DNA of 46,235 bases from an uncultured Gammaproteobacteria bacterium. Lineage in GTDB: Bacteria > Patescibacteriota > Patescibacteriia > UBA1558 > GWA2-36-10. The stretch is taken from assembly GCA_964533435.1 (NCBI GenBank), contig CAZHLU010000002.1, forward strand, positions 1,203-47,437, in the 5' to 3' direction. This document shows, in pieces, positions 10,586 to 44,045 of this stretch. The stretch's first letter is position 1; each line of letters starts with the position of its first letter. Position numbers and translations under genes: made by a program. The notes below the pieces were generated by a model, which did no database searches, had not been told where the DNA came from, and was given only the letters and a program-made list of their open reading frames with translations.

Positions 10586-11536
10586 ATGACTAAGACGAAT
10601 AAAACCCTACCCCTCTTTGAGGAGTATTTAGAAAATATTCAATCCAATAATTATTCAGCGGAAACAGTTTATAATTATGAACGTGATTTAAAAACTTTTG
10701 AAGATTTTTTATTTAATGATATAAAAACAGATTTTAAAAATATTGATAAAAGGTCTTTAATCAAATTTAAGGCTTACCTCTCCTCTGTTGATAGGCTTAC
10801 AGCCTCAGCCAAGACTGGTGAAGTTAAATTATCTAGTTATAGTATAAATAGAATTTTATCTTCTTTAAGATCTTATTTAAAATTTTTAATTGATGTTGAT
10901 TATAAAACTCCTATTTCACCAGACTCGGTAAAGCTTTTAAAGACTGAAAAAAAACGAGCGCAAGTGCCAGAGATGGCAGAACTCATTCGCTTGATTGAAG
11001 CGCCAGAAAAATTTGAAACTGATCCCACGATTAAATTACGTAATCGAGCTATGCTAGAAACCTTGTTTGCCACCGGTATGCGTATCTCAGAATTATTATC
11101 TTTAAAACGTGAACAGTTAGATCACTCCGGACGTATCTATGTAATGGGTAAAGGTAAAAAACAACGTTTTGTTTATTTGACTCCTCGTTCGATAAAATGT
11201 TTGCAAAATTATTTTAGCACTCGTAGAGATAATTCTCCTTATATGTTTGTACCCTATCGTGGTCGTAATAACCAAGCGCGAGCTAAAAAAATATCAACCA
11301 ACTATCTACAATATAAAATAAAAAAGTATCGGGAATTATTATTTATTAACTTACCGATTTCAGCTCATACTTTGCGTCATGGTTTTGCTACCTATTTAGC
11401 AGAAAATGGTGCTAACCCAGCTGCTATTCAAATTCTTTTGGGCCATGAGTCCTTAGATACTACTACTCGCTATGTGCATGCCTCTGATAAATATGCTGAA
11501 AAAAGCCATACTAAGTTTCATCCTTTAAGACAATAA
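10586..11536 (+). CDS. Tyrosine site-specific recombinase, XerC/XerD-like
   Basis: 316 aa. N-terminal SAM-like core-binding domain; C-terminal catalytic motifs ATGMRISEL, HTLRHGFATYL and LGHESLDTTTRYVH (R..HxxR..Y). Confidence 0.88.
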   Translation: MTKTNKTLPLFEEYLENIQSNNYSAETVYNYERDLKTFEDFLFNDIKTDFKNIDKRSLIKFKAYLSSVDRLTASAKTGEVKLSSYSINRILSSLRSYLKFLIDVDYKTPISPDSVKLLKTEKKRAQVPEMAELIRLIEAPEKFETDPTIKLRNRAMLETLFATGMRISELLSLKREQLDHSGRIYVMGKGKKQRFVYLTPRSIKCLQNYFSTRRDNSPYMFVPYRGRNNQARAKKISTNYLQYKIKKYRELLFINLPISAHTLRHGFATYLAENGANPAAIQILLGHESLDTTTRYVHASDKYAEKSHTKFHPLRQ

Positions 11537-21897: not shown

Positions 21898-23430
21898 TTA
21901 ATTAGTTTTCTTTTTTTCTGTTACCCAAAAGCCTAAATATTTACCAAATAATAATCTAGTTTGAGCATCGATTGCCGGTATTGAGCCAAAAGCAATCATG
22001 GTAAATGGGATAATTAACCATTGTAAAAACATCAAAGGATAGCGGTAGTATTTGCTCAAGGGATTTTTTTTAATACTAACTGGCATTGGCGGTAATATGA
22101 CCACACCCATAATAGCTAAAATAACAATACCAATCATACCAGAGCGCATTAGTGTTTCTAGTAATAAGGGTGTGTTTTGAGCCACTACAGTGCTTAAGGA
22201 GCGTATTTCAGCCAGTTTTAGGGGTAAATAGCCCATGATAGTAATAATAAAGGGAGCGGTTGCCCAGCAGTAAACACCTTCGGTTTGATTCCAAATATAA
22301 CGTATTTTAGTGTGACGAGAAATCTTAGGATGACGACGGAAATTCCAAACCATATAGGGAAAATGTTCTACACCCCAAGCCCAACGACGCATTTGCTTGT
22401 ATTGATTTTTTAAACTACGCCACAAACTACCGACATAAACTGTGTTCATGGAAACTGGTATATGCATTGGCTCTACTTTATAGTTGCCTTCATAATGAAT
22501 TAAACATTGGATAAAAATACGGGAATCTTCAGTGACGATATTATTTTGCCAAAAGCCAATATCAACTAAAGCTTGCCAGCTCATACTATGTGAAGAAAAA
22601 GTAAATAAGCGACTTGGACGAGCTAGTTCTGTCAGTAGCCAAAAAGTAGTAGAATTAGCAACTACTCTGGTAATAATATCTGATTCCCAAACATTATTAT
22701 TATAAAAAGCCATTGGTTGAAAACTAGCATGATAAGGATCGGGATGATTAATAAATTTATAACTTAGATAACTAAAATAATCAGGATGAGTAATAGTATC
22801 AATATCAAAACTAGAAACAATTAATTTTTTATAATCTAAGTTATTTTGATCAATGTATTTTTTGACTTCATGGCCAGCATGATACAGATTTGAGCCTTTG
22901 CCTTTTACCTCCCCTTCTATATTGTCAGGATGGATAGTAATAATAATTTTGTAAAAAGCAGATTGATATTTATTTTCTATTTGTTTAGCAATACTTAAGA
23001 ATTGTTCCTCAAAACGGCCTTCACCAGCTAAGATAACAATCATTTTTTTAGTATCGTATTTAACTTGGGTTAGATTGTGGAAAGTAGTATCTACTATTTC
23101 AAAAGGCTCGCCGGCAGTTGGTAAAAAAACTAGATGATAATATTCACTCCACTGTGGGCATTCTTCTTTTAATTTTTTCCACCAATCAGTTTTGATAGCG
23201 CGTCGATATTTAAACCAGGATATTAATAAAAATAGCAACATGTAAAGAATACGTAATATCCAATAAACATCAAAAGCAATAATAAAATAAATACCAGCAA
23301 TGGGGTTAATAAAAGATAAAACTACAATAAAAATAAAAGTAAACCAAACCATTGAACCAGGAATAAGTTCTAAGAAACGGTAGGAGTAGTAATCTTTTTG
23401 TTGCTGACTAATGTTTTTAAAAAATTTCAT
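21898..23430 (-). CDS. Membrane-embedded processive family 2 glycosyltransferase (cellulose/chitin-synthase-like)
   Basis: Multiple TM segments flank a GT2 core with SSFDIDT and a QMRRW (QxxRW) motif. The ORF-track start 23451 is a TTG, so I prefer ATG 23430 (MKFFKN). Confidence 0.7.
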   Translation of the reverse strand: MKFFKNISQQQKDYYSYRFLELIPGSMVWFTFIFIVVLSFINPIAGIYFIIAFDVYWILRILYMLLFLLISWFKYRRAIKTDWWKKLKEECPQWSEYYHLVFLPTAGEPFEIVDTTFHNLTQVKYDTKKMIVILAGEGRFEEQFLSIAKQIENKYQSAFYKIIITIHPDNIEGEVKGKGSNLYHAGHEVKKYIDQNNLDYKKLIVSSFDIDTITHPDYFSYLSYKFINHPDPYHASFQPMAFYNNNVWESDIITRVVANSTTFWLLTELARPSRLFTFSSHSMSWQALVDIGFWQNNIVTEDSRIFIQCLIHYEGNYKVEPMHIPVSMNTVYVGSLWRSLKNQYKQMRRWAWGVEHFPYMVWNFRRHPKISRHTKIRYIWNQTEGVYCWATAPFIITIMGYLPLKLAEIRSLSTVVAQNTPLLLETLMRSGMIGIVILAIMGVVILPPMPVSIKKNPLSKYYRYPLMFLQWLIIPFTMIAFGSIPAIDAQTRLLFGKYLGFWVTEKKKTN

Positions 23431-24511
23431 AATCTTGGGCTTCCTTACCAATAGCTTGGCTTAAATGAGAATAATTATTTTCTTTTAATAATTTAACTAA
23501 ATCTTGGTTTATTTTTTTAGCGGTATAGGGTCCGCCGTAAATAAAGCCAGTTGCTAAAGCAATCAGATTTGCGCCAGCTTTAATCTTGGTAAAAGCATCA
23601 GCTCCTGAAAATACGCCGCCGCAGGCAATGATTTTGTATTTATTTTCACTATTTTGATATAAATAGGCAATAATTTTATTAACACGTTTACTAATTGGTT
23701 GTCCAGAAACGCCACCAGGCTTATCTTGATTTTTAGAAACTAAGCTTAATTTACTTTTATCTTTAGATAAATTAGTAGCAATAATAGCAGTAATATTGTA
23801 TTTTTTTACTAAAGCAATAACATCATCTAATTCATTTTTAGATAAGTCCTGTCCAATTTTTAGCCACAGAGGTTTATGTTTGGTATTTACTTTAGTGATG
23901 GCTTCTAAAATTGGTTCTAATAATTCTTTTTGTTGTAGGCCAGTAAAATTACTAACATTAGGACAGCTTAGATTAATAGAAATAATATCAGCTTGTGCTT
24001 CAATAACTTTAAAAGCAGTCACATAATCATCAGCCGCTTGATTTAGACTAGTTTGATTATTTTTAGCAATACTAATAATACGCACTCCCCTTTTTTTGGT
24101 TTTAAGATTTTGTAAACGTTGGCTAATTTTTTTAGCGCCCATGTTGGCTAAACCAAAATAAACTACCAAAGCTTTGTCTTGGGGTAAACGCCAGAGTCTT
24201 GGTTTAGGATTGCCAGCTTGAGTTTGGGAAGTAACAGAGCCGATTTCGACAAAGCCAAAATCAAAGCTTGGCCAGACATTTACAGCAGTAGCGTTTTTGT
24301 CCATGCCAGCTGATAGTCCTACGGGCGTCCTAAAATATTGGCCAAATAATTTTTGTTTTAAACTAGGATTAGTAAAATTAAAAAATTTAAATAATAAATT
24401 ATTTAAAAAATTAAAACGGTTAAATATTTTTAAACAAGCTAAAACAAAATCATGTGCTGTTTCGGCTGACATTAAAAACAAAATTGGTCTAATTATTTTT
24501 TGATATAACAT
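23417..24511 (-). CDS. pyrD: Dihydroorotate dehydrogenase, class-2-like architecture
   Basis: 364 aa. Class-2-type N-terminal extension (PILFLMSAETAHDF), GNPKPRLWRL, and GGVSGQP. The active-site loop reads INLSCPNV. Confidence 0.88.
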   Translation of the reverse strand: MLYQKIIRPILFLMSAETAHDFVLACLKIFNRFNFLNNLLFKFFNFTNPSLKQKLFGQYFRTPVGLSAGMDKNATAVNVWPSFDFGFVEIGSVTSQTQAGNPKPRLWRLPQDKALVVYFGLANMGAKKISQRLQNLKTKKRGVRIISIAKNNQTSLNQAADDYVTAFKVIEAQADIISINLSCPNVSNFTGLQQKELLEPILEAITKVNTKHKPLWLKIGQDLSKNELDDVIALVKKYNITAIIATNLSKDKSKLSLVSKNQDKPGGVSGQPISKRVNKIIAYLYQNSENKYKIIACGGVFSGADAFTKIKAGANLIALATGFIYGGPYTAKKINQDLVKLLKENNYSHLSQAIGKEAQDYEIF

Positions 24512-24966
24512 TATTTTTCTCTTATCTCATGTTTAATAACTTTGTCATTATCATCAAAAACAAAGTTAGCTTCAAATTTTTTATTAGCTAAAAATAAAGG
24601 CAACCAATAATTATCATCATCCCACATTTTGGCATAAGGAATTTGGTCTAAAGAAAACCAAGCTGGTTTCATTTCTTCGCTCTCCTCTACCTCACCACTA
24701 AATTCCAGGCATTTAAAAACATGAACTTCTAAATCCTGTTGTTTATTCTGCCAACTAAAATTTATTAGACCAACTTCCACTAAATTTTTTGGCACCAAAT
24801 TACATTCTTCATAAACTTCTCTGGCAGCTGCTTCAGTTATGGTTTCGCCTAGTTCTGGTTTACCACCAAAGCCATTCCATTTGCCAATACCAAATCCACG
24901 CTTTTTTAAGCCTAGTAAAAGCTGATTATCTTTCTGGATTAAAGTCAATGTTAGGACTTTAGGCAT
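24511..24966 (-). CDS. NUDIX hydrolase, MTH1/MutT-like (oxidised purine NTP pyrophosphatase)
   Basis: 151 aa. The Nudix box GKWNGFGGKPELGETITEAAAREVYEECNL closely resembles the MTH1/NUDT1 box. Its stop overlaps the pyrD start (TAATG). Confidence 0.8.
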   Translation of the reverse strand: MPKVLTLTLIQKDNQLLLGLKKRGFGIGKWNGFGGKPELGETITEAAAREVYEECNLVPKNLVEVGLINFSWQNKQQDLEVHVFKCLEFSGEVEESEEMKPAWFSLDQIPYAKMWDDDNYWLPLFLANKKFEANFVFDDNDKVIKHEIREK

Positions 24967-24970
24967 TTGT

Positions 24971-25366
24971 TTATTTTATACTATGACCAAAATCTTCATC
25001 TTCTTGATCAGCAATGGCATCAGCTGGAGTTTGGTGAATTCGGCCATCAATATGGTTAGCAGGCGCATAGATGGTATAGATCTTTAAAGATTCAGTACCA
25101 GTATTTATAAAATTATGTTCAGTACCAGGTGTAACCACTACTACATCACCAGCTTTTATTTCGGATTCTTTACCATCTAAAATAGCCTTGCCACTGCCAG
25201 ACATAAAAAATAAAGATTGCTCAACATGATCATGTGTTTCTAAACCAACTTCTTCGCCAGGTTTAATGTCCATGACTACTAGCTGACTTTTTTGGCCAGT
25301 AAATAAAACCGTGCGAAAGTTTGTATTATCAGCAGTATTTTTTAAAATGTTTGTTTGATAAGACAT
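24971..25366 (-). CDS. Cupin-domain protein
   Basis: 131 aa with cupin motifs (ETHDHVEQSLFFMSG, GDVVVVTPGTEHNFIN). Confidence 0.75.
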   Translation of the reverse strand: MSYQTNILKNTADNTNFRTVLFTGQKSQLVVMDIKPGEEVGLETHDHVEQSLFFMSGSGKAILDGKESEIKAGDVVVVTPGTEHNFINTGTESLKIYTIYAPANHIDGRIHQTPADAIADQEDEDFGHSIK

Positions 25367-25395
25367 GTTTTTAAATTTAAATTAATAAATATATG

Positions 25396-25872
25396 TTATT
25401 TGTTTTTTGTCTTTAACTTTTTTTCTTTAGTCCTTTGTTTATTTACTAACCAAGAACTAGATTGTACTTTACCACCCTGACCAAGGTTAAAAACCATCCG
25501 ACAATTAATTTGCTGGCAAACTGCTACTTCCGGAATATTATCAAGTTTTCGGTCACCGCCATTAGCAAAGATATCAGGTTTTATTTCTAGGAGAGCTTCG
25601 CAAACACTCATGTCTTGCGGATTTTTTGGGTGTTTAGTTAAGACTACTTTATCAACTGATCTAAAAGCTTCAATTACCTCTTTACGTTCCAGTTCAGGCA
25701 TAAAGGCATAACCTTTTTTCTTGATTAACCAATTATCATTATTTAAAATAACTATTAATTTATCACCTAATTTTTTAGCAGCTTGAAACATGCGTACATG
25801 ACCAATATGTACTGGATCAAAACCACCGGAAACAGTGACGATAATGGGTTTTTTTGTTTTTTTATGATTCAT
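25396..25872 (-). CDS. Cytidylyltransferase-superfamily nucleotidyltransferase (RfaE-II/TagD-like)
   Basis: 158 aa. Contains [15 protein letters not shown] (HxGH) and a later ANGGDR motif. Confidence 0.75.
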
Positions 25873-26164
25873 CTAAAATTATTCTTTTTTTAAATTTACC
25901 TTTTTTCTCTGCTTTAGCTTTTTTTAATTCGGCAATTGTTTGCTGGTCAAATTGTTTGTATTCAATAATAGCTTCAATCACCTCTAAAACATCAATTAAT
26001 TCCTCAACACTTTCAGCTTCATTAAACTCAGTAAATTCTTCTAATAATTTTTCTTTTAATTTCTGCCAGTATTCATCTTCGCTAGCAATGTGCGTAATTG
26101 GATTATCGCCTTTACTTCTGACATATTCGGGAATTTTATCGCGAACTAATTTATTGTATTTCAT
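25862..26164 (-). CDS. MazG-like / phosphoribosyl-ATP pyrophosphohydrolase-like NTP pyrophosphatase
   Basis: 100 aa. N-terminal [11 protein letters not shown] and an acidic EExxE-type helix ([24 protein letters not shown]). Overlaps both neighbouring genes. Confidence 0.6.
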
Positions 26165-26687
26165 GATTTTTTTCTATTTGGATAAGGGCAGTAACAATTG
26201 CCTGCTTAGTATAAGCTTTACGATTTAAACGTCCTTTAGTCAAAATACCAATCAAACCTTCAGCTGAACCAACTTTAGGATTAGTAGTATAGCCGGCTTT
26301 AAAAGCAGCTTGGTTCATATCTAGATTTTCTTGATCAATCAATTGCTTAATATCGGGTGGTAATTCCCAAGCCGATGATATGCCTAAATAAGTTTTTTGG
26401 CCGTCAAAAATAGCACAAACACACATATCCATAAAACCGCTATCAGCATAAGGCACAACCATCAAGCCAGATTCTAAACCAAAACTATAATCACAATCAA
26501 TAAAAGCCTTTTTAGCTCTATTAATTGCCCCTCTAACTGTTTCTTCTAAAGAAGTTGGTTGTTCTGAAACATCAGATGAAACTTCTTGAGCTGTTATTTC
26601 TGCTTCTTTAAACATGTTATAATCTGACAACTGTTCTTTAACAGCCTCAATCTTACTAGGGTTTAAAGAAGCGACTTTTACTTTCAT
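26151..26687 (-). CDS. yjjX: Inosine/xanthosine triphosphatase (YjjX/DUF84 family)
   Basis: 178 aa. N-terminal [23 protein letters not shown]-like SDVSEQP, and GLESG motifs. Confidence 0.75.
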
Positions 26688-33629: not shown

Positions 33630-34277
33630 TTATTTCGAAGCTTTTTTAGCTATTTTAGCTTTTTTTATAGCTTTAGGAGCTTTGGTAACTTTGCTTGCCT
33701 TTTTTTCCTTTGCTTCTACTTTTAGTTCTTTTTCAATTTTTACTGGCTTATCAACAATTAGTTTTTTTACTTCGGCTTTAGGAAAATTTTTCAAAATTTC
33801 ATCAAGCTTTTGGTTAATATTTTTAAGTTGTTGTTCTAGTTTTTCATTACTAGGACCACTACCAGATTTTTTATCTTTAGCTCTGCTATCTTGTCCAAAG
33901 CAATTTGAACAAAGCACAGGCTTGTCGCCAGTTGGTCTAAAAGGTACTTCGCAAGGATCGCCACATTCAGTACAAACGGCTTTAAACATTTTTTTATCAC
34001 GAAAATTGCTTTTGCCAAAATCTCGACCACCACTAGATCGATTAGAGCCAAAGCTACTGTCTTTACCTTTAAAGCAGTTATTACAATAAACTGGTTTATC
34101 ACCAGTTGGTCTAAAAGGTACTTCGCAAGGATCGCCACATTCAGCGCAAACAGCTTTGTGCATAGCTGGTCTGGCACCACTGTCGCCCCTACCAAATCCT
34201 CTGCCTGAGTCTCGGCGACCAAATCCACCGCCACCTTTGCGGTCATTAAACCTTCCGCCCTTATTAAAATTACCCAT
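33630..34277 (-). CDS. RGG-box protein with two CxxC-x17-CxxC zinc-ribbon repeats and a lysine-rich tail
   Basis: 215 aa. The N-terminus is G/R/F-rich (GGRFNDRKGGGGFGRRDSGRGFGRGDSG). It carries two copies of KAVC.ECGDPCEVPFRPTGDKPV.C.NCF, and the C-terminus is K/A/E-rich. Likely nucleic-acid binding. Confidence 0.75.
   Translation of the reverse strand: MGNFNKGGRFNDRKGGGGFGRRDSGRGFGRGDSGARPAMHKAVCAECGDPCEVPFRPTGDKPVYCNNCFKGKDSSFGSNRSSGGRDFGKSNFRDKKMFKAVCTECGDPCEVPFRPTGDKPVLCSNCFGQDSRAKDKKSGSGPSNEKLEQQLKNINQKLDEILKNFPKAEVKKLIVDKPVKIEKELKVEAKEKKASKVTKAPKAIKKAKIAKKASK
33928..34144. repeat. Perfect 43-nt intragenic direct repeat (two copies)
   Basis: CCAGTTGGTCTAAAAGGTACTTCGCAAGGATCGCCACATTCAG occurs at 33928-33970 and 34102-34144, 174 nt apart and in frame. 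It encodes the two zinc-ribbon repeats. Confidence 0.95.
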
Positions 34278-37196: not shown

Positions 37197-37496
37197 ATGA
37201 CCGACAACAAAGAGATCGTGGTGGTTCAGCGAAAGCTACTAGTTGAGGTAGTGGTGGCAAACGAAGAGATGGCCGACAAGATCATCAAGATGGTGCAGGA
37301 GGTTGACGAACGTGTTCGTCAGGAACGCATTTCTTTCGTGGTCGATAGTCACGAAAAGATGGCTGATGGTCACCATATTCGCATCCTCTGCGAATGGAGA
37401 CAACAGACGCACCTGCAAAACATCTTGGCTGAGATCAGCAAAGTGCTCGGCCTTCATTTCCGTGACCCAACTCTTCAACAGCCAAGCTCAGACTGA
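37197..37496 (+). CDS. Small acidic hypothetical protein with foreign (GC3-rich) codon usage
   Basis: 99 aa. Strong SD AGGGAGG (37184-37190) lies 6 nt before the ATG, and a dedicated terminator follows. Codons mostly end in G/C, unlike all neighbouring genes. No recognisable domain. Confidence 0.55.
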   Translation: MTDNKEIVVVQRKLLVEVVVANEEMADKIIKMVQEVDERVRQERISFVVDSHEKMADGHHIRILCEWRQQTHLQNILAEISKVLGLHFRDPTLQQPSSD

Positions 37497-37506
37497 ATCG
37501 CCCCTA

Positions 37507-37540
37507 GGGCAAGCTAGCGACTTGCCCTTTTTATTTTTAT
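37507..37540 (+). terminator. Terminator of the GC-rich small ORF
   Basis: GGGCAAG (37507-37513) pairs with CTTGCCC (37521-37527), followed by TTTTTATTTTT. Confidence 0.8.
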
Positions 37541-37547
37541 ATAAAAT

Positions 37548-37579
37548 AAAAGACAGGCCTTATTTAGGCCAGTCTTTTT
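37548..37579 (-). terminator. Terminator of the ATPase/salvage operon
   Basis: AAAGAC-A-GGCC (37549-37559) pairs with GGCC-A-GTCTTT (37567-37577), with T-rich sequence on the - strand. Lies immediately after the NUDIX stop. Confidence 0.65.
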
Positions 37580-37973
37580 ATTTGATAAAATTAAAATGTT
37601 TTAAGACAGGTAATATATTAGGAGCTAAACCTTCTGGCAGTTGATCAAGGTCAAACCAACCCCAATTTTTAATATCTGGTCCTGGTTTTATTTCACCTAC
37701 TCTTTTGGCTAAATAGTGAACCAAGAGTACGTCAACGCGAGCATCGCTTAAGTCTTTGTAGGCCCAGGTAATAAAAGGCTCTGGGTTTAAAATTTCTAAT
37801 TCAATACCCATTTCTTCTTTAGCCTCTCGAATAGCCGCGCTAATCAAATTTTTTTCATAATCCTCTACCCTGCCACCACAAAATTTCCAAAAATTATCAT
37901 CGCCATGTTGATTGAGTAATACTTTATTGTTTTCAACAATAACTGGACCAGAGGCAATAATTATTTTAGGCAT
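37578..37973 (-). CDS. NUDIX hydrolase
   Basis: 131 aa with Nudix box GGRVEDYEKNLISAAIREAKEEMGIE. Starts 2 nt after the upstream stop. Confidence 0.85.
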   Translation of the reverse strand: MPKIIIASGPVIVENNKVLLNQHGDDNFWKFCGGRVEDYEKNLISAAIREAKEEMGIELEILNPEPFITWAYKDLSDARVDVLLVHYLAKRVGEIKPGPDIKNWGWFDLDQLPEGLAPNILPVLKHFNFIK

Positions 37974-37975
37974 AA

Positions 37976-39469
37976 TTAAGAAATTTTAAAAATTGATATT
38001 TTTTCTAAGGCAACACTAGCTAAATGTATGCGATCTTTACTACGAGCATATAAAGTAAATAAGCGCTCGCCTTTTTTAACGTGATTGCCGTATTCTTTAT
38101 TTAAATAGACGCCGGCTAATTTATCACTTGGTGCGCCTAAAATACGAGCAATGGTATTTAAGCCTTTATTATCGGTAAAAGTTATTTTACCAGACTTAGG
38201 AGCAGTAATATATTTTTTACAAGCACCAATCACAATATCTTCAGGATCAATTTCTGAATTACCACCTTGGGCTTTAATAATTTCTTGCATTTTTTTCCAA
38301 GCAGCACCAGATTCTAGGGCTTGCCAAGCCATTTTAGCACCGTGTCCTTTTTTGGTTTTGCCAGTAAGTTCAAGTAGTTCACCGGCTAGATGAATGGCTT
38401 TATTGGCTAAATCGGTTGGATAACCATCTTTTTGTTGCAAAACACGTAAAACATCTCTTGCTTCTAAGGATGGACCTACGCCACGACCAACTGGATCTTC
38501 GGCTCTAATCATCACTACTTTAATTTTAATGCCAAATCTAGAGGCTAAATACTTGAATTTTCTTTCTAATTCTTTAGCAACCTTCATATCTGGTATTTTG
38601 GTAGTAACACCAACCGGCATATCGATAATCAAATGAGTAATACCCATAGCAACCTTTTTAGCCATAATACTAACTAACATTTTATCGTATGGCTCTAAAG
38701 ATAATGGATAAGATACTTTTAATATTTTATCATCAGCTGGTGCTAAATTTAAACCGCCACCCCATACTAGACAGGCGCCAGTTTTTTTAACTATTTTACG
38801 AATTTCATCAGCGGTAAAAGATACTGGAGCAAGTACTTCCATAGTATCTGCCGTGCCCGCTGGCGAAGTAATAGCCCTAGAAGAAGTTTTAGGTATTATT
38901 AAGCCTAAAGAAGCTAAAATAGGGATAGCCACCATGGTAGTCCTGTTTCCTGCTAATCCACCAACTGAGTGTTTATCAGCCACTAAGCCATGAAACTTAA
39001 TAACTTCACCAGTTTCAGCCATAGCTTTAGTCATGTAATAGAGCTCTTGATCAGTATAATTTTTGATAAAACTAGAAGCTACAAAATAAGTAATTTCAGT
39101 TCTAGTTAAAATACCATTGCTAATATCGGAAAATATTTGGTAAAAATCTTGGTAAGTTAATTTTTTCTTTAAGAGCCTTTTTTTAATAGCTTGGATAGAT
39201 TTGGCTCTTTCTAAAAATTCTACTTCTACAATAGTGTTTTGAGGAATGGTCATCTTTTCCCAAATATCACGATACAAAGCAATTTGTCCGGGCTTTACTC
39301 TGGTGCTAGAAGTGTTAGCTTCGGCTATAATTCTATTTTTTTGCCATAAAATTTCTATTTTATCGCCAGCTCTAATGCCATAGCGCATGGCTTCCTCTTC
39401 GTTGACTAAAGCAATATTTGCTTGGCCAGTTTCAATGTCTAGTTTTTTGATTTTTAGATAATAAGGCAT
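37976..39469 (-). CDS. AMP phosphorylase / thymidine-phosphorylase-family enzyme (archaeal DeoA type)
   Basis: 497 aa. An ~85-aa N-terminal extra domain precedes the glycosyl-transferase family 3 core (HSVGGLAGNRTT, SSRAITSPAGTADTME). This length and architecture match AMP phosphorylases rather than the ~440-aa bacterial thymidine phosphorylases. Confidence 0.8.
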   Translation of the reverse strand: MPYYLKIKKLDIETGQANIALVNEEEAMRYGIRAGDKIEILWQKNRIIAEANTSSTRVKPGQIALYRDIWEKMTIPQNTIVEVEFLERAKSIQAIKKRLLKKKLTYQDFYQIFSDISNGILTRTEITYFVASSFIKNYTDQELYYMTKAMAETGEVIKFHGLVADKHSVGGLAGNRTTMVAIPILASLGLIIPKTSSRAITSPAGTADTMEVLAPVSFTADEIRKIVKKTGACLVWGGGLNLAPADDKILKVSYPLSLEPYDKMLVSIMAKKVAMGITHLIIDMPVGVTTKIPDMKVAKELERKFKYLASRFGIKIKVVMIRAEDPVGRGVGPSLEARDVLRVLQQKDGYPTDLANKAIHLAGELLELTGKTKKGHGAKMAWQALESGAAWKKMQEIIKAQGGNSEIDPEDIVIGACKKYITAPKSGKITFTDNKGLNTIARILGAPSDKLAGVYLNKEYGNHVKKGERLFTLYARSKDRIHLASVALEKISIFKIS

Positions 39470-39472
39470 AGA

Positions 39473-41230
39473 TTAAAATTTTATTACTTGACCAGGCTTT
39501 AAGATTTGACTGGATTTTTGATTAGAAGTTTGAGTTTTATTTTTTGTTATATTAGGACTAGTGTTTTGATTGGATACAGGTTTAGCTTTGATAGCATCAG
39601 CTAGAGAAATAAATGATTCTTTGCTTTCGTCTGTTTTTTCTTCTGCCACAACCTCATCCTTGGGTGATGTTGGCTTTACTATTTTAATACTAGACGGAGA
39701 AGGAATTTTACCTTGTTTTGCTAGTTCTAAACAATTGTTGCAATACACTGGTCGATTTGGATCAGGATCAAAATTAATTTCTGTTTCCTTACCACAATAA
39801 GTGCAATTTATTTTATTGACAACGCTAGGCTTTTTAGCTTTAGCTTCTTTTTTAGCAGCCATTTTACTAGCAAAAGTAGGTTTAGCTGGAGCTTTGGCTT
39901 TACTAGCTACAGGCTCTTTATTTTCACTCCAACGTGTAATTTTGTCTTCAATAATTTCACGAGGTTTAGCATAACGTTCACGAGAAACTTTAACTACTTT
40001 TTCTTTAATGCCAGTAGAATTTTCAGGTGTAGCTACAGGTGGCAAACCAATAGCTGAAAAAGGTTCAGTAGTGACGCCATTAATCATTAATTTCAAATAC
40101 ATTTCAAACTTTGACAGATTAACTAAATCTTCTTGAGTAAAAATTGGAAAAAATTCTTTTTCTAAAAATTCAGCATCATTAGCACCTACCCTAAAGGCTA
40201 CAATAGTACCGACATTGCCGAAAACGGCAGATTTAATAGTTTCATCACTACCAAATTTTAATTGATCTATGTATTGGTGGGCAATTACTAAATTAAGGGC
40301 ATATTTACGAGCTTCGGATAAGATATTAGCAAAACTATGAGTAGCAAAATTTTGAAATTCATCAACATAAAGATAAAAATCTTTTCTATCTTTTTCAGGG
40401 GTATCAACCCTAGACATGACTGCCAGCTGAATCTTGGTAATCATCATAGAACCAAGTAAAGCCGAATTATCTTCGCCTACCCTACCTTTAGAAAGATTTA
40501 GTAAAAGAATTTTTTCTTCATCCATTACTTCGCGCATAGAAAAAGAAGATTTGACCTGACCTAAAACATTTCTAATTAAAGAAGATGACAAAAAGCGTCC
40601 AACCTTATTTTGAATTGGAGCAATAGCTTCAGCTTGAAAACGGTCAGGATATTTAGAATATTCATCCACCCAGAAAGCTTTGACTACCGGGTCAGTAATT
40701 TTTTCGATTACTCTTTCTCTAAAATTCTTGTCAGTCAGAATACGCATAATACCCAAAAGTGTAGAACCTGGGTATTCAAGTAATGCCGAAATTGCATGGT
40801 GTAAAACGTATTCAAGTCTTGGTCCCCAAGAATCAGCCCATATTTTTTTAAAGACGCCAATCAGACCAGATACAACTAAATGTCGCTGTTCAATATTAAC
40901 ACTTTCTAAAACATTAAAAGCAATCGGATAATCAAGGTCAGCTGGATTAAAATAAATAACGTCATTAATACGTTCTGGTGGTATAAAATCAATTACTTTT
41001 TCAACTAAATCGCCGTGTGGATCAACTACACAAACACCTCGTCCATTACGGATGTCTTGGATAATCATGTTTTCCAACATGGTACTTTTACCCATACCAG
41101 TCTTACCAATGATATACATGTGTTTACGTCGGTCGTCTGGTTTAATACCAAATTTAACCTGAGAATTACGAAAATTCGTCTGGGCAAAAACAGTTACATC
41201 TTGATTATTATTTTTATTTTGCGAATGCAT
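39473..41230 (-). CDS. Anchorless VirD4/TraD/HerA-like P-loop ATPase with C-terminal CxxC-x17-CxxC zinc ribbon
   Basis: 585 aa. Walker A is IIGKTGMGKS and Walker B is FYLYVDEFQNF. No TM segment. The C-terminal K/A-rich linker leads to CTYCGKETEINFDPDPNRPVYCNNC, encoded at about 39733-39806. Confidence 0.8.
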   Translation of the reverse strand: MHSQNKNNNQDVTVFAQTNFRNSQVKFGIKPDDRRKHMYIIGKTGMGKSTMLENMIIQDIRNGRGVCVVDPHGDLVEKVIDFIPPERINDVIYFNPADLDYPIAFNVLESVNIEQRHLVVSGLIGVFKKIWADSWGPRLEYVLHHAISALLEYPGSTLLGIMRILTDKNFRERVIEKITDPVVKAFWVDEYSKYPDRFQAEAIAPIQNKVGRFLSSSLIRNVLGQVKSSFSMREVMDEEKILLLNLSKGRVGEDNSALLGSMMITKIQLAVMSRVDTPEKDRKDFYLYVDEFQNFATHSFANILSEARKYALNLVIAHQYIDQLKFGSDETIKSAVFGNVGTIVAFRVGANDAEFLEKEFFPIFTQEDLVNLSKFEMYLKLMINGVTTEPFSAIGLPPVATPENSTGIKEKVVKVSRERYAKPREIIEDKITRWSENKEPVASKAKAPAKPTFASKMAAKKEAKAKKPSVVNKINCTYCGKETEINFDPDPNRPVYCNNCLELAKQGKIPSPSSIKIVKPTSPKDEVVAEEKTDESKESFISLADAIKAKPVSNQNTSPNITKNKTQTSNQKSSQILKPGQVIKF

Positions 41231-41239
41231 AAATTTAAT

Positions 41240-42757
41240 TTATTGAGGGACTATCGGTAAATCTTCTGGAGGTGAATTTTTGGAACGACGAGGCGTGACT
41301 TTAGGTTTGACATTTTGGTCAACTGGAAAATTTCTCTCATAATAAGAATTATCTAAAGATACATCAAAATCAGGAACAGTTTTAAGTTGCTTACGTAATT
41401 CTTCTTGGGCTTGTTCTTCATTAGTACCAATATCTTGCATAACAGGTAAAGCGGCTGGGGCTTGAACTTTTTTCGATTCAGTTTTTTGTAATAATGGAGT
41501 ACGAATATATTTACTTGGAAAATGCCAAAGCGAAGCAAGCTCCTCGGTATTTAAAATAAAAGAAGCGTGGCCAGCAATAAAACTACGATTTCGATAAGCT
41601 CTAATTAATCTACTGCGGCGCCAATTAGTTCTCATTTTGACAAACAGCCACTCAATTTTGGTTTTGGTTTTACCGTCTGGTTTAAAAGCATTTAAATTTA
41701 AACTACTAAATTGCTTAATCGCTCCAAAAACAGAAGCGATTACCCTTGGTGGACTATAAGTTTCTTTGGGAGATAAATAAATAAGACGAATTTTAGTGTC
41801 AAAACCAATTTTAGAAGCTTTAGTATCAATGGCTTCTAGTTTAGCTTTTTCGCCAGGAGTTAAATGCAGCATCAAGCTTGGCAAATCATCCTTCTTTTTT
41901 TCAGTTTTTTTGCCGCCAATATCACCAACTGGCCAAAAAATACTATCACCACCAGATAATTCTATTAAGCTACGCATTGAACCAAAGGCGTTTTCTAAGA
42001 TACTTTTTTTCTTTTCCTTTGGTTTTTTACCAGCAATTTTAGCTGCCTCTGCTTGACTACGTTTAGTCCAGGCAGCGTCAGTTGGTCTAAGCATAATTTG
42101 CAACCAAACTTGCTCGCCGGGTTTAATTTTGCTCATAGTTTCCAAGATGGAGGCCATTGGATCTTTGAATTCTCCGGAAACCTTATCTTCAAAGTCTAAG
42201 TAGGTTTTAATAGGATAAACATCGTTTGCAACTGGTACAACTTCAGTGCCCCACATGTTGTATTTTTCATCAGGAAAATTTTTGGGCATTTCAGTCACAT
42301 AATCTTCTACTTGGGTAATTTCCGCATCTGGATACTGAGAGTAAACAGCACTTTCAACAACATCGCGTGATTGTTCTGGGGTGCGGATTAAAAATTGAAC
42401 ATAGCCATCAATACTAACAATTTCAAAGGCAAAAGATAACTGAAACATGCCATTGTATTTATCTCTAGTACCAATTGGTGTATGAGCTCCTGATAGAGTG
42501 GCAAATAGTTGTTCAATAGCCTTGGGTGTTTGTTCAGTATCCTTAGGTATGTCTACAGCTAAGATAATAAATTTAATTTTAGAAAACCAGCTATTTTGTA
42601 TGGCATTAAGCCAGACATCATAAGCCATCATCATAATAATGATAAGATAAATTACCCAACCACCGTTTAAAATAACATAAACCATGGCATCAAGTGGTGA
42701 CATGTAAACTAGTTGGTTTAAAAAATCCGTATTAATTGTGATACTAAAATTATTCAT
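41240..42757 (-). CDS. N-terminally membrane-anchored protein, function unknown (partner of the ATPase)
   Basis: 505 aa. Has a hydrophobic N-terminal segment (AMVYVILNGGWVIYLIIIMMMAY), a large soluble domain, and lysine-rich linkers (KKPKEKKKS, GGKKTEKKKDD). Lies 9 nt upstream of the ATPase gene. Confidence 0.6.
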   Translation of the reverse strand: MNNFSITINTDFLNQLVYMSPLDAMVYVILNGGWVIYLIIIMMMAYDVWLNAIQNSWFSKIKFIILAVDIPKDTEQTPKAIEQLFATLSGAHTPIGTRDKYNGMFQLSFAFEIVSIDGYVQFLIRTPEQSRDVVESAVYSQYPDAEITQVEDYVTEMPKNFPDEKYNMWGTEVVPVANDVYPIKTYLDFEDKVSGEFKDPMASILETMSKIKPGEQVWLQIMLRPTDAAWTKRSQAEAAKIAGKKPKEKKKSILENAFGSMRSLIELSGGDSIFWPVGDIGGKKTEKKKDDLPSLMLHLTPGEKAKLEAIDTKASKIGFDTKIRLIYLSPKETYSPPRVIASVFGAIKQFSSLNLNAFKPDGKTKTKIEWLFVKMRTNWRRSRLIRAYRNRSFIAGHASFILNTEELASLWHFPSKYIRTPLLQKTESKKVQAPAALPVMQDIGTNEEQAQEELRKQLKTVPDFDVSLDNSYYERNFPVDQNVKPKVTPRRSKNSPPEDLPIVPQ

Positions 42758-42814
42758 GGCTTAAAGCTATGGTTTGATTGCTTATATTATACAATTTTTA
42801 AGGACTTTTTAAAA

Positions 42815-42860
42815 GAGCCAAAACAAAAACAAGCTCGTCCAAGTAGGATTTGCTTGTTTT
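42815..42860 (-). terminator. Terminator of the sigma-like gene
   Basis: AAAACAAGC (42826-42834) pairs with GCTTGTTTT (42852-42860), 17-nt loop, with a T-rich tract on the - strand. Confidence 0.6.
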
Positions 42861-42872
42861 TGTTTAAAATCA

Positions 42873-43979
42873 TTATTCTTTAGTAGCTAGACGGTAGCGA
42901 CCATTAGTGTCGCGATTAAAAATATTTTTATTCATTAGAGCTAAAGTAATAGTTGTTTCTTTGATTAAACGACGTTTTAATACTTCAGCAACAATTTCTT
43001 TTTTAGTTAAACCTTGAGGATTTAGTTTTAGAATTTCGGCAATTACTTCACTAACTACACCTGGTTTATAACCCCATTCAGCTAAGGCATAAATACCGCG
43101 ACCAACTAAAACATATTTTTTATCTAAAATAAGTTCGTTGTGAATAGTGGCTGGATAAGCTAAACGATGATCAAAATTCATTTTATTGATATAGTCAGCA
43201 ATTTCAGTAAAGTGCATTGGACGATTTTCTTTCTTTAATACTAGATAGACTTTATCGTTCATGCGCTTAGGGCTAATTTCTGACCAGTCAGCTAAACCCC
43301 ATTCTTCGTAAGGATTGGACTTTAATTTTTTTGTAACGTAAATAAAGTTTACAACTACCTTATCAGTTAAATCATCGTCATTTTTATAAAAATCTTGATC
43401 CTGTACTTTAGCAATTAAATTATCTAAAGCTAAAGGAGCGCCATGATTTTCAACTAAGCAACGAATATTATTGATAACTTCTTCATATTTGTCCAAAGAA
43501 GCTTCTGGAGTTTTCCAAAAAGTATAGTTATGTAGAGTTTCTTTGACCATTTGAAAACGATGTTTTAGTAATTGGCCTAAGATAAAGATAATGGCGGCTT
43601 TGTTTTCTTCACTTTGACCAGGAATAGTTAATAATTCTCTAATCAAATTAACTTCAGCCATTAAACCACCATGTTCAGCTAAAATACCATTAGTAATATC
43701 TTCCAATTCTTTTAGATAAGTTTGGTCAAAGTTTTTGGTAATTTTCTTTAAAGAGGTATTTTCAATCTGACGAACACGTTCGCGAGTAACCTTATATTCT
43801 TTACCAATATCTTCTAAAGTTTTTTTATCATAGCCAGCTAAACCATGGCGAAACTTAATAATTTCCCTTTCTCTTTCAGATAAAGCCTGTAAAATGCTCT
43901 CCAAAGTTTGATGGGGATTAAAAGTTGCCAGATTTGACTGGTGTTTGGCAATGATAACTTGGTCTAAAATTGAATCCAT
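42873..43979 (-). CDS. Sigma-70 region-4 HTH protein with C-terminal HARE-HTH-like domain
   Basis: I prefer ATG 43979 (MDSILDQ). The N-terminal EREREIIKFRHGLAGYDKKTLEDIGKEYKVTRERVRQIENTSLKKI matches sigma region 4. No region 2/3 is recognisable. The C-terminal MHFTEIADYINK...VLVGRGIYALAEWGY resembles the HARE-HTH of RNAP delta-type proteins. Confidence 0.65.
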   Translation of the reverse strand: MDSILDQVIIAKHQSNLATFNPHQTLESILQALSEREREIIKFRHGLAGYDKKTLEDIGKEYKVTRERVRQIENTSLKKITKNFDQTYLKELEDITNGILAEHGGLMAEVNLIRELLTIPGQSEENKAAIIFILGQLLKHRFQMVKETLHNYTFWKTPEASLDKYEEVINNIRCLVENHGAPLALDNLIAKVQDQDFYKNDDDLTDKVVVNFIYVTKKLKSNPYEEWGLADWSEISPKRMNDKVYLVLKKENRPMHFTEIADYINKMNFDHRLAYPATIHNELILDKKYVLVGRGIYALAEWGYKPGVVSEVIAEILKLNPQGLTKKEIVAEVLKRRLIKETTITLALMNKNIFNRDTNGRYRLATKE

Positions 43980-44045
43980 ATGATTATTGACAAATATATA
44001 GAAAAATAGTGATTTTTTTAAAATCAACTATAGAATAACACAATT

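Follow-up and report, generated by a model that had tools for sequence, protein, structure and literature searches.

Type IV coupling proteins (T4CPs) are cytoplasmic motors that pass their substrates to export channels. A precedent for a T4CP made of two proteins is found in TraI and TraJ of plasmid pIP501 (PMC4981023). In the Patescibacteria, the sections of the survey by Quinonero-Coronel et al. 2025 that we draw on (PMC12102498) list 5,713 VirD4-type homologues in 2,918 of 3,035 genomes, only 148 of them near virB4; such homologues occur in 96% of the genomes, compared to 80% for VirB4. The same sections propose a possible exaptation of these orphan homologues, and they describe a t4cp homologue of Southlakia that is non-essential for epibiotic growth, while the T4SS genes are essential. 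The T4SS cluster of Southlakia was reported to be without a recognizable coupling protein (PMC10633639), and deletion of comEC in this organism led to loss of competence with viability being kept (reviewed in PMC12857230). A DUF8128 partner, a split or fusion, a secDF-sigma/HARE block and recurrent AMP-pathway neighbors receive no mention in the sections of PMC12102498 used here. In the present study, we analyzed a window of 46,235 nucleotides (46 kb) that contains four adjacent genes, designated g1 to g4. By homology, g1 and g2 together appear to represent the split form of a T4CP that actinobacteria have as one chain, rather than a new kind of machine.

Gene arrangement and flanking signals

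The ORF listing confirmed that g1 to g4 are co-directional and tightly spaced, as the first-pass annotation had indicated, the gaps between consecutive genes being 9, 3 and 2 nt. The features of the locus are listed below.

42873..44027, minus strand: upstream neighbor, 384 aa, with sigma-70 region 4 and HARE-HTH (Pfam); outside the operon, with its own terminator
42821..42865, minus strand: terminator-like hairpin closing this upstream gene (RNA folding)
42786..42813, minus strand: promoter-like site ahead of g1 (TTTAAA-16-TATAAT, consensus match only)
41240..42757, minus strand: g1, 505 aa, putative membrane-anchored DUF8128 protein (PF26449 on homologues, profile-profile alignment)
42620..42694, minus strand: predicted single transmembrane (TM) helix of g1, residues about 22-46 (hydropathy and model)
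39473..41230, minus strand: g2, 585 aa, VirD4/TraD/TrwB-type P-loop ATPase (Pfam and PDB matches)
41084..41107, minus strand: Walker A of g2, GKTGMGKS, residues 42-49 (ORF translation)
40346..40372, minus strand: Walker B of g2, LYVDEFQNF, residues 287-295 (ORF translation)
39725..39814, minus strand: treble-clef zinc finger of g2, CxxC-x17-CxxC, residues 473-502 (PF23477, TIGR04272)
37976..39469, minus strand: g3, 497 aa, AMP phosphorylase, archaeal-type DeoA (TIGR03327)
37578..37973, minus strand: g4, 131 aa, small NUDIX hydrolase (PF00293)
37548..37578, minus strand: terminator-like hairpin overlapping the g4 stop codon, bidirectional in form (RNA folding)

Taken together, RNA folding and a consensus scan placed terminator-like hairpins only before g1 and after g4, which had also been noticed before. 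The hairpin at 42865..42821 has a folding energy of −20.3 kcal/mol (z −4.39, with 0 of 200 shuffles being equally stable) and is followed by a U-rich tract. It was missed in the consensus scan because its stem is A/U-rich and its loop is long. The hairpin at 37578..37548 has a folding energy of −16.4 kcal/mol (z −4.47), and its inner stem was detected on both strands by the consensus scan as well, which revealed no further minus-strand terminator-like site between the two hairpins. The promoter-like site scored 10 of 12 consensus matches. Since these signals bracket g1 to g4, they were counted in favor of a single unit, and the four genes are probably co-transcribed from one promoter. The upstream neighbor matches Sigma70_r4 (8.4e-15) and HARE-HTH (3e-9). 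The earlier domain calls for the last two genes were borne out: g3 scores 549.7 bits with TIGR03327 (equivalog cutoff 535), and g4 matches the NUDIX family with 1.1e-16. An R15P isomerase or RuBisCO was found nowhere in the window.

The DUF8128 protein, the ATPase and their single-chain relatives

The homologues of g1 (3178 representative clusters at E<=1e-3) all carry the precomputed domain PF26449, which corresponds to DUF8128. The protein has only one hydrophobic segment (residues about 22-46, Kyte-Doolittle maximum 2.14), which falls within a long helix (H21-60) of the AF2 model (pLDDT 81). Together with K-rich loops at residues 263-290, where the model confidence is low, this agrees with the initial description of an N-terminal anchor and lysine-rich linkers. 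The large domain is suggested to be cytoplasmic, because the N-terminus is acidic and a basic stretch follows the TM segment in a fused homologue from an Embleya plasmid. When the g1 model was compared with PDB folds, the best 12 matches were all VirB4/TrwK chains (best match E 9e-5, probability 1.0), with low TM-scores of 0.27-0.33 and an output that does not locate the VirB4 region concerned. At the sequence level, no similarity of g1 was detected to TrsD, TrsE, the VirB4 sequences in the PDB or the Pfam models of the VirB4 N-domain.

For g2, the profile-HMM searches returned T4CP families of Pfam, with thresholds being passed for TrwB_AAD_bind (6.7e-15, residues 29-349) and TraG-D_C (1.3e-6). 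DUF87 was matched with 1.3e-7, and the matches to DUF87/HerA and FtsK_SpoIIIE were weak, far weaker than those to T4CPs. Among PDB sequences, g2 matched TrwB (4.6e-6) and DotL (0.009), and no VirB4 match was obtained. The only VirB4 model matched by g2 gave 23.8 bits versus a cutoff of 590. In an alignment of 20 homologues, with a mean column identity of 65%, residues 42-48 of Walker A, the entire Walker B (L287-F295) and the finger cysteines C476, C479, C497 and C500 are invariant, while S49 is nearly so. The C-terminal part consists of a K/A-rich linker and the zinc finger (CTYC-x17-CNNC, residues 476-500), which matches Pfam zf_Tbcl_2 (PF23477, 1.8e-10) and TIGR04272 (38.1 bits, cutoff 36) and is absent from some distant orthologues. 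No TM segment is present in g2, as no 19-residue window exceeds a Kyte-Doolittle value of 1.24. Motifs, Pfam matches and hydropathy are thus in accordance with the earlier view of an anchorless VirD4/TraD-like ATPase.

The relationship between the two proteins became apparent from actinobacterial T4CPs, in which DUF8128 and the ATPase are fused. The g1 profile aligned with these single-chain proteins over 320 columns (hhalign probability 93.5%, E 2.3e-7), and the alignment stops just before their Walker A. The 812-aa T4CP encoded on a plasmid of Embleya sp. NBC_00896 has one TM segment (residues 34-56) and its Walker A at residue 428, which is the order of g1 followed by g2. Homologues of its first 400 residues fuse PF26449 to PF10412, PF01935 or PF12696 in one chain. 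Single-sequence alignments were collinear with the alignment of the g1 profile to the N-terminal half of the T4CPs, and g2 aligns with the C-terminal half, being 31.5% identical to the Embleya protein (E 2e-61). Upstream of the Embleya gene lie genes for a VirB4-like ATPase and, further out, PrgI/VirB3, and downstream those for a replication-relaxation protein and an NlpC/P60 protein. The cluster is of the conjugative type, with the order PrgI–VirB4–T4CP–relaxase-like.

Judged by these direct homologies and the split/fusion relationship, g1 is most readily viewed as the detached N-terminal module (TM and DUF8128) of a T4CP. The previous proposal that the ATPase and the membrane protein form a unit is retained, and we infer that they would do so as a complex. 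The associated view that they are not a conjugation coupling protein is contradicted by their homology to one. Several results were nevertheless counted against a split T4CP. The scores of g2 come nowhere near any of the NCBIfam equivalog cutoffs for T4CPs (52 bits versus 366, and similar). Against single pSK41 sequences, hhalign preferred the C-terminal domain of the VirB4 protein TrsE (82.5%) over the T4CP TrsK (16%), and the structure model of g2 (pLDDT 48) yields no fold evidence for the motor.

Genomic neighborhood and competing explanations

In the Patescibacteria, the pair is located in a housekeeping block with the order secD–secF–sigma-r4/HARE-HTH–DUF8128–ATPase–variable slot–mnmA. 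Of 74 loci, 69 have g1 directly ahead of g2, including two in which the genes overlap and which were added to a count of 67. The same order is seen in distant lineages, where g1 identity is about 33%; some lineages have kept the ATPase without DUF8128. Across 80 species loci, g2 is 55-96% identical. Of the 63 related loci with enough flank, 60 have the sigma-r4/HARE-HTH gene upstream of the pair on the same strand. It is also upstream in 3 of 5 distant contexts with readable upstream sequence, and is absent from the other 2. No second VirB4/VirD4-like ATPase was found within 10 kb of the pair in the 80 loci, and no T4SS, relaxase or channel gene near it in any Patescibacterial locus examined. 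Among the window proteins that were scanned, there was likewise no T4SS gene, as noted before. Proximity to VirB/Trb genes, which had been named as an argument against a role apart from conjugation, is thus absent from the related loci, but the fused form does occur in the conjugative-type cluster of Embleya, outside the Patescibacteria. Based on these sequence comparisons, the pair appears to belong to the conserved core of these tiny Patescibacteria and to be vertically inherited in a stable block.

The slot behind g2 is more variable, and what it holds agrees for the most part with the ATPase tree. AMP phosphorylase directly follows g2 in 24 of 70 loci and is found further downstream, behind R15P-isomerase/RuBisCO, in 7 more (31/70 in total), with NUDIX following it in 12/70. 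An IF-2B-family isomerase comes after g2 in 10 related loci, accompanied by the RuBisCO large subunit in 9 and with AMP phosphorylase next in 7. In other lineages, the slot holds genes for LOG, UDP-glucose dehydrogenase, glycosyltransferase or pilins, and AMP phosphorylase is absent from all four distant contexts whose downstream sequence could be read. Of the conserved link to phosphorylase and NUDIX that had been anticipated, there remains a link in part of one class-level clade, which is less conserved than those of the pair to secDF, the sigma-r4/HARE-HTH gene and mnmA. The pair is therefore linked to AMP salvage in some lineages only.

We consider it probable, though by no means certain, that the locus combines two unrelated two-gene modules, namely a split T4CP of the VirD4/TraD superfamily (g1 and g2) and a salvage module of AMP phosphorylase and NUDIX (g3 and g4). 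In this arrangement, g1 would contribute the single membrane helix and a cytoplasmic DUF8128 domain and would anchor g2 at the inner membrane face. The g2 protein would contribute the P-loop motor and an all-alpha domain and, in this lineage, the K/A-rich linker and zinc finger. It would oligomerize as T4CPs do, and spend ATP to recruit a substrate, most likely single-stranded nucleic acid or nucleoprotein, and to drive it toward a membrane channel. The channel partner would most probably be a monoderm-type Patescibacterial T4SS encoded elsewhere in a cluster of its own without a coupling protein; this partnership is a conjecture, because T4SS, relaxase and channel genes are absent from the vicinity of the pair. 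The products of g3 and g4 would serve nucleotide-monophosphate salvage and occupy the variable slot in this lineage, probably being co-transcribed with g1 and g2 without mechanistic coupling being required. Nonetheless, the salvage genes sit uneasily as pure passengers, because g2 is followed by AMP-pathway or LOG genes in 41/70 loci, usually with very little intergenic space. These states are dispersed across the ATPase tree, those of the AMP pathway on several separate branches.

This pattern is also an argument for an exapted motor that acquires nucleic acids or nucleotides, the product being broken down to nucleoside monophosphates that would enter AMP phosphorylase/NUDIX salvage directly; we regard this explanation as unlikely. 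The 41 loci represent three arrangements of nucleoside-monophosphate-cleaving genes on the same strand: AMP phosphorylase, to which NUDIX may be added; R15P isomerase-RuBisCO, where AMP phosphorylase may be present or absent; and a LOG-family protein. Within the AMP phosphorylase clade, most loci have only a few nt between g2 and the phosphorylase gene. An HD/HD_assoc_2 protein, which we take to be a dNTPase-type domain pair, occurs near the pair in two distant loci, and the zinc finger and K-rich tail may be compatible with nucleic-acid binding. Conversely, the linkage is missing in 29/70 same-clade loci and in the four distant contexts, genes without an obvious tie to salvage (secDF, sigma/HARE, mnmA) are equally or better conserved, and the independent slot events are few in number because the downstream state mostly follows phylogeny. 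Moreover, since T4CPs serve export channels and g1 has one TM helix, no import pore is encoded here. The published data cut both ways: the prevalence of T4CP homologues over VirB4 and the dispensable t4cp homologue (PMC12102498, in the sections cited) fit such a motor, but cells that lost competence with comEC stayed viable (PMC12857230). A functional tie to salvage is possible, the genomic context being suggestive.

The same prevalence and dispensability hint at a T4SS-independent role. One such role, which we judge improbable, would be that of a membrane-tethered FtsK/HerA-like translocase for chromosome handling, division or repair, recruited early in Patescibacterial evolution from a conjugative coupling protein. 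It would account for the core, vertically inherited location, the high conservation of g2, the 96% versus 80% of genomes (PMC12102498, same sections), the weak DUF87/HerA and FtsK_SpoIIIE matches and the conserved neighbor with DNA-binding domains. These matches are, however, far below those to T4CPs, some lineages dispense with DUF8128, and the only mutant phenotype in the cited sections of PMC12102498 is the non-essentiality of the Southlakia t4cp homologue, a candidate orthologue. A component of anti-phage defense with a HerA- or Mad8-type ATPase is very improbable. Besides weak HerA matches, g2 does match PADLOC mad8 (8.9e-16, 56 bits, residues 34-379), but the generic T4CP model of Pfam scores just as high, so that the match probably reflects the shared ATPase fold. 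In addition, g1 matches no defense model, the operon contains no further MADS component, and the pair, which is single-copy-like, keeps a syntenic position among housekeeping genes and is inherited vertically, unlike defense islands.

Comparison with known systems

With the archaeal-type AMP pathway (AMP phosphorylase, ribose-1,5-bisphosphate isomerase and form III RuBisCO), g3 shares the phosphorylase step, the window holding only this gene and NUDIX. The g1-g2 pair resembles the NTD and CTD layout of VirB4 (TrwK of R388, TrsE of pSK41), but for g1 the match is limited to the fold. With the canonical T4CPs TrwB (R388), VirD4, TraD and DotL, g2 has in common the P-loop NBD into which a helical domain is inserted, whereas its chain is without the N-terminal TM domain and relaxase/MPF genes are not adjacent. 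The likeness to pIP501 of Enterococcus lies in the gene arrangement, as the gene of a TM-less VirD4-like ATPase comes directly after that of a membrane protein for which a role in bringing the ATPase to the membrane has been proposed (PMC4981023). However, TraI and TraJ belong to a conjugative tra operon of 15 genes that includes a relaxase, unlike g1-g2, and g1 is a large protein (505 aa) with a structured DUF8128 domain. The orphan VirD4-type homologues of Patescibacteria in the cited sections of PMC12102498 are likened to g2 by annotation and domain content. The closest counterparts are the DUF8128-type T4CPs from actinobacterial plasmids and ICE-like elements (Embleya, with homologues in Streptomyces, Frankia and Nonomuraea). 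The Embleya protein is encoded beside VirB4, PrgI, relaxase-like and NlpC/P60 genes, in contrast to g1-g2 in its chromosomal housekeeping block. These T4CPs are single chains, whereas here two genes are found and g2 adds the K/A-rich linker and zinc finger, but the order of modules is the same in both: TM, DUF8128 and VirD4-type P-loop.

Gene organization and genomic surroundings of the DUF8128-ATPase pair

The genes described here all lie on the minus strand, and the intergenic gaps between g1 and g2, g2 and g3, and g3 and g4 amount to only 9, 3 and 2 nt, respectively. The following features were distinguished, the coordinates and lengths of g1 to g4 being those of the ORF listing:

42873-44027, minus strand: gene for a protein with sigma-70 region 4 and HARE-HTH domains (sigma/HARE gene), directly upstream of g1
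42757..41240, minus strand: g1, DUF8128 membrane protein, 505 aa
41230..39473, minus strand: g2, P-loop ATPase, 585 aa
39469..37976, minus strand: g3, AMP phosphorylase, 497 aa
37973..37578, minus strand: g4, NUDIX protein, 131 aa

RNA folding placed one hairpin at 42865..42821 (−20.3 kcal/mol, z −4.4) and another at 37578..37548 (−16.4 kcal/mol, z −4.5), and for both none of 200 shuffled sequences was as stable. A consensus scan detected no further minus-strand terminator-like sites between these two bracketing hairpins, and it located a promoter-like sequence (TTTAAA-16-TATAAT) at 42813..42786. Internal promoter-like matches are numerous in this AT-rich DNA, with 40 against 24.9 expected, and are uninformative. 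The four-gene operon with flanking hairpins that had been proposed in the first-pass annotation was thus borne out by the ORF listing, the folding and the consensus scan, and the annotations of g1 to g4 proved correct in family scans and by motif positions. We infer that the four genes are co-transcribed. The rest of the window has a housekeeping character, with genes for aminoacyl-tRNA synthetases, SecA, SecDF, alanine racemase, DHODH and mnmA. Amid these genes lies a tyrosine recombinase (10586-11536, plus strand) with Phage_integrase and SAM-like N domains in a XerC/D-like layout. Convergent with the operon is a 99-aa ORF (37197-37496, plus strand) that matches no family, is followed by a terminator-like hairpin of its own (37506-37528) and has a weak homologue only in the related locus L019.

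The neighbourhood of the pair was sampled in 80 loci, chosen at species level and including flanks of up to 10 kb on each side. Many of the MAG records that carry the block described below (L001, L002, L009 and others of the 80) are titled 'uncultured Gammaproteobacteria bacterium' and evidently derive from Patescibacteria; these titles are probably a labelling artefact of submission. Where enough flank was available, g1 immediately precedes g2 in 69 of 74 loci, a number composed of 67 counted cases plus L006 and L009, in which the two genes overlap. Ahead of g1, the sigma/HARE gene occurs in 60 of 63 loci, and its product may regulate the pair or work together with it. Further upstream, secD and secF are present in most loci, and mnmA is found downstream of the pair in 38 of 70. 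In distant lineages with about 33% identity in g1, the adjacency of the DUF8128 and ATPase genes is retained; secD and secF precede the pair in those distant contexts in which the upstream region is readable, and the sigma/HARE gene is present in three of these five. The ATPase lacks a DUF8128 neighbour in a few lineages (L073, L065 and L075; L054, L057 and L043). In the first three, the gene for an ATPase of about 490 aa without the zinc finger has that for an LPG_synthase_TM membrane protein 0-7 nt behind it, and in L054 a 72-aa ORF with a TM segment occupies the position of g1.

No second VirB4- or VirD4-like ORF was found within 10 kb on either side of the pair in the 80 loci, and the scanned proteins of the window include no T4SS, VirB4/MPF or relaxase components. 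The two genes are thus separated from T4SS genes and sit within a core gene block. The early impression that no ordinary conjugation gene is at hand held up, as did the expectation that VirB/Trb genes would be missing beside the pair in relatives.

A coupling protein divided over two chains

The Walker A (GKTGMGKS, residues 42-49) and Walker B (LYVDEFQNF, 287-295) motifs of g2 are invariant in 20 homologues, except for S49, which is nearly invariant. A zinc finger of the type CxxC-x17-CxxC (CTYC-x17-CNNC, residues 476-500) was recognized by zf_Tbcl_2 (1.8e-10), and no hydrophobic or TM segment is present in g2, the maximum Kyte-Doolittle value being 1.24. Both g2 and g1 belong to large families, whose members with an informative taxon name are all from Patescibacteria. 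More than 8,000 homologues of g2 were found, and its identity across the 80 species-level loci ranges from 55 to 96%. An AF2 model of g2 built on a shallow 20-sequence alignment was unusable (pLDDT 48).

The Pfam models matched by g2 are TrwB_AAD_bind (55.3 bits, cutoff 20.5, E 6.7e-15, residues 29-349), TraG-D_C (28.8 bits, cutoff 22) and DUF87; the VirB4 models CagE_TrbE_VirB, TraC_F_IV, AAA_10 and P-loop_TraG are not among them. Of the NCBIfam equivalogs for type IV coupling proteins (T4CPs) none was reached, the highest score being that of SXT_TraD (52 bits, cutoff 366), with lower values for the CD1115 VirD4-like model (41, cutoff 250) and F TraD (27, cutoff 521). The sole VirB4 match in NCBIfam, VirB4_plasma, scored 23.8 bits where the cutoff is 590. 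Searches of PDB sequences returned TrwB (4.6e-6) and DotL (0.009) and no VirB4. When plasmids were searched by tblastn, 611 records matched, including one that encodes an 812-aa single-chain T4CP of Embleya sp. NBC_00896 (31.5% identity, E 2e-61). An hhalign comparison with single pSK41 sequences ranked the C-terminal domain of VirB4 (82.5%) over TrsK (16%). This ranking is a caveat; more weight was given to the curated profiles and to the match with the Embleya T4CP, which is encoded beside a separate and genuine VirB4. Most of the sequence evidence, that is the Pfam and NCBIfam matches, the PDB matches to TrwB and DotL without VirB4 and the 1e-61 match to the Embleya T4CP, therefore favours placing g2 in the T4CP branch and not with the VirB4 C-terminal domain. 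A defence-related reading was also considered, since g2 matches PADLOC mad8 of the MADS system with 56 bits over residues 34-379, which is as strong as the generic T4CP match in Pfam. No MADS component was matched by g1, the sigma/HARE gene or g4, and we rejected this reading in view of the missing partner gene and the housekeeping synteny.

The closest plasmid homologue of g2 is encoded at 6986-8173 of L089, a plasmid of the alphaproteobacterium Sulfitobacter mediterraneus (NZ_CP081110.1; 40.6% identity, E 8e-94). This ATPase of 395 aa is TM-less and stands alone amid transposase and recombinase genes, with no DUF8128 gene annotated nearby. Within the window, a 215-aa protein (33630-34277, minus strand) combines a glycine/arginine-rich N-terminus with two treble-clef fingers of the CxxC-x17-CxxC type (zf_Tbcl_2, 1.1e-31) and a tail rich in lysine and alanine, the finger and tail being of the same type as in g2. 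It looks like a small nucleic-acid-binding protein.

The g1 protein contains one TM-like segment (residues ~22-46) and lysine-rich loops that were modelled with low confidence. Local scans with NCBIfam and with a Pfam release older than PF26449 gave no match for g1, in the case of Pfam even for 43 members at E≤10. More than 2,495 homologues were found, and every one among the matches listed carries a precomputed PF26449 (DUF8128) assignment; a profile search extended the family to 3,178 representative clusters at 50% identity. The AF2 model of g1 (pLDDT 81, pTM 0.71) was compared with PDB folds, and the best 12 matches were VirB4/TrwK chains (E 9e-5 to 2e-3, probability ≥0.99), with low TM-scores of 0.27-0.33 and an aligned region that the tool does not display. 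The next match was an ESX-3 component (E 6e-3). As no generic P-loop ATPase appears among the top 50 fold matches of this model, the similarity probably concerns the VirB4-specific N-domain. Single-sequence comparisons with pSK41 TrsD and TrsE and the Pfam VirB4 models revealed no link to g1 at the sequence level, and its profile retrieved only noise from PDB sequences (ribosomal protein S6 at E ~0.07). The comparison with pSK41 TrsD thus gave no tie of g1 to the TrsD family, which accompanies VirB4 in Patescibacteria.

The relationship between the two proteins became apparent from the Embleya T4CP, which has a single TM helix at residues 34-56 and a Walker A motif only at residue 428. Its gene cluster encodes PrgI/VirB3, a separate VirB4 (643 aa, matching P-loop_TraG, AAA_10 and TraC_F_IV), the T4CP, a replication-relaxation protein and an NlpC/P60 protein, and is by its gene content a typical monoderm conjugation cluster. 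Homologues of its residues 1-400 come from Streptomyces, Frankia, Kitasatospora and Nonomuraea, and in many homologues of this N-terminus PF26449 is fused to PF10412, PF01935 or PF12696 in a single chain. When the g1 profile was aligned with the N-terminal halves of actinobacterial T4CPs, hhalign reported a probability of 93.5% (E 2.3e-7, 320 columns); columns 45-438 of g1 correspond to columns 78-411 of the T4CPs and end just before Walker A. Single-sequence alignments of g1 to fused T4CPs are collinear with this profile-profile result. At the level of sequence, g1 (TM segment plus DUF8128) and g2 (the motor) together correspond to a single actinobacterial coupling protein divided between two chains. 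Such a fusion/split relationship is strong evidence that the two proteins act as one unit. The N-terminal TM segment that anchors a T4CP is missing from the chain of g2 and lies on g1, and, going by the fused homologues, g1 would supply this anchor to g2 in trans. The first-pass annotation had preferred a module for nucleic acid or nucleotides over a conjugation coupling protein, a contrast that does not stand, since in its ancestry the pair belongs to the coupling proteins.

A DUF8128 domain that is apparently split at a different point was observed at 5991-8626 of L091, the Bacillus subtilis plasmid CP025942.1. There, a 171-aa ORF contains, by eye, motifs of the first half of DUF8128 (YYAEHPEVEIVEVGD, IKTYHNE, LQFLVNPAY), and the ATPase of 696 aa encoded by the next gene starts with the second half (g1 columns 304-425 aligned to residues 3-114 by hhalign, E 1e-3).

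The variable slot behind the pair and nucleotide salvage

Patescibacteria, a very large bacterial group, rely on hosts for their nucleotide supply. Genes g3 and g4 together make a coherent set for nucleotide salvage. The g3 protein matches TIGR03327 (AMP phosphorylase) with 549.7 bits (cutoff 535), its residues 5-495 covering positions 2-491 of the 500 in the profile. The expected products of AMP phosphorylase are the free base and ribose-1,5-bisphosphate. The match of g4 to NUDIX PF00293 scores 61.5 bits (cutoff 21.1, E 1.1e-16), with no NCBIfam equivalog reached, and such an enzyme could supply monophosphates. Other nucleotide-metabolism genes are clustered on the same minus strand at 23417-26687, and encode a dihydroorotate dehydrogenase (23417-24511), a NUDIX protein (24511-24966) and an NTPase_I-T/DUF84 protein (26151-26687).

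The position directly after g2 and before mnmA behaves as a variable slot. It is occupied by AMP phosphorylase in 24 of 70 loci, followed by NUDIX in 12; by an IF-2B-family R15P isomerase in 10, with the RuBisCO large subunit in 9 of those and AMP phosphorylase after the isomerase and RuBisCO in 7; and by a LOG/Lysine_decarbox protein (PF03641) in 7, including L040, L049, L054, L057, L063 and L076. In 9 loci the slot contains UDP-glucose dehydrogenase together with a permease, in 5 a GT2 membrane glycosyltransferase and in 5 type IV pilin-like genes; distant lineages have CAP, or BacA with an HD protein. The 46-kb window itself contains neither R15P isomerase nor RuBisCO. LOG-type enzymes cleave nucleoside 5'-monophosphates, and the LOG gene could functionally replace AMP phosphorylase in the slot. 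In a neighbour-joining tree of the ATPase, each slot state forms one or a few clades and the AMP-pathway states appear at several separated positions, which fits an old linkage that was repeatedly lost.

It had been proposed that the ATPase and its membrane partner hand their product directly into the AMP-salvage genes. The AMP-pathway adjacency does recur in related loci, and the 41 of 70 loci with monophosphate-cleaving genes in the slot, in three arrangements, exceed what would be expected of a random passenger. However, this adjacency, from which alone a coupling to salvage is argued, is lineage-limited and weaker than that to secDF, the sigma/HARE gene and mnmA, so that we consider a direct hand-over unlikely. 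As general conserved partners of the pair, the salvage genes were rejected, secDF, the sigma/HARE gene and mnmA being more widely conserved. An elaborated version is less likely still, namely that a split, T4SS-detached coupling protein was exapted as a core membrane-tethered motor that takes up or processes host-derived nucleic acid, with an output into AMP phosphorylase, R15P isomerase and RuBisCO, acting alone or import-like via a distant T4SS. If true, the pair would be a dedicated 'feeding' translocase for organisms unable to make nucleotides.

Possible action of the pair and comparison with known systems

With respect to the two-chain coupling protein, the large domain of g1 would be cytoplasmic, judging from the acidic N-terminus, the strongly basic stretch behind the TM helix in the fused homologue and the contact needed with the motor. 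Protein g1 would then tether g2 to the membrane, where g2 may oligomerize and translocate a macromolecule. That this substrate is nucleic acid is suggested by the K/A-rich linker, by the treble-clef finger and by the DNA-translocase history of the family. The most economical partner would be the monoderm-type T4SS of Patescibacteria, and the T4SS cluster of Southlakia has no recognizable coupling protein (PMC10633639). According to a 2025 survey, VirD4-type homologues occur in 2,918 of 3,035 Patescibacterial genomes (96%), compared with 2,417 that have VirB4, and only 148 of 5,713 such homologues lie close to virB4; in Southlakia the homologue is reported to be non-essential and the T4SS essential, and the role of the homologues was left open there (PMC12102498). 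The difference between 2,918 and 2,417 genomes, the rare proximity to virB4 and the non-essential Southlakia homologue leave real room for a T4SS-independent role of the pair.

Orphan VirD4-type homologues of Patescibacteria have been published and DUF8128 is on record as an uncharacterized Pfam family. Our literature search found no papers mentioning PF26449 or DUF8128, nothing useful on CxxC-x17-CxxC, and no published account of the split/fusion relationship, of an obligate DUF8128-ATPase pairing, of the conserved core block or of recurrent AMP-pathway neighbours. New here are the dedicated and conserved partner of the orphan ATPases, DUF8128, the location of the pair within a very stable core gene block, and the placement of an AMP-salvage pathway directly behind it in one large clade. 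The equivalence of g1 plus g2 to a single-chain actinobacterial coupling protein provides the first functional context for DUF8128. The pair is a concrete two-protein target for interaction, localization and knock-out work in CPR systems that are now tractable, and whether secretion machinery is linked to nucleotide scavenging becomes a testable question; the finding would be of greater interest if the salvage link were real. A known precedent is found in pIP501, where the gene for the membrane protein TraI directly precedes that for the TM-less TraJ, the two products making up a two-protein coupling protein (PMC4981023). The arrangement described here is alike in that a TM-less T4CP ATPase, g2, is encoded directly downstream of a membrane protein, g1.
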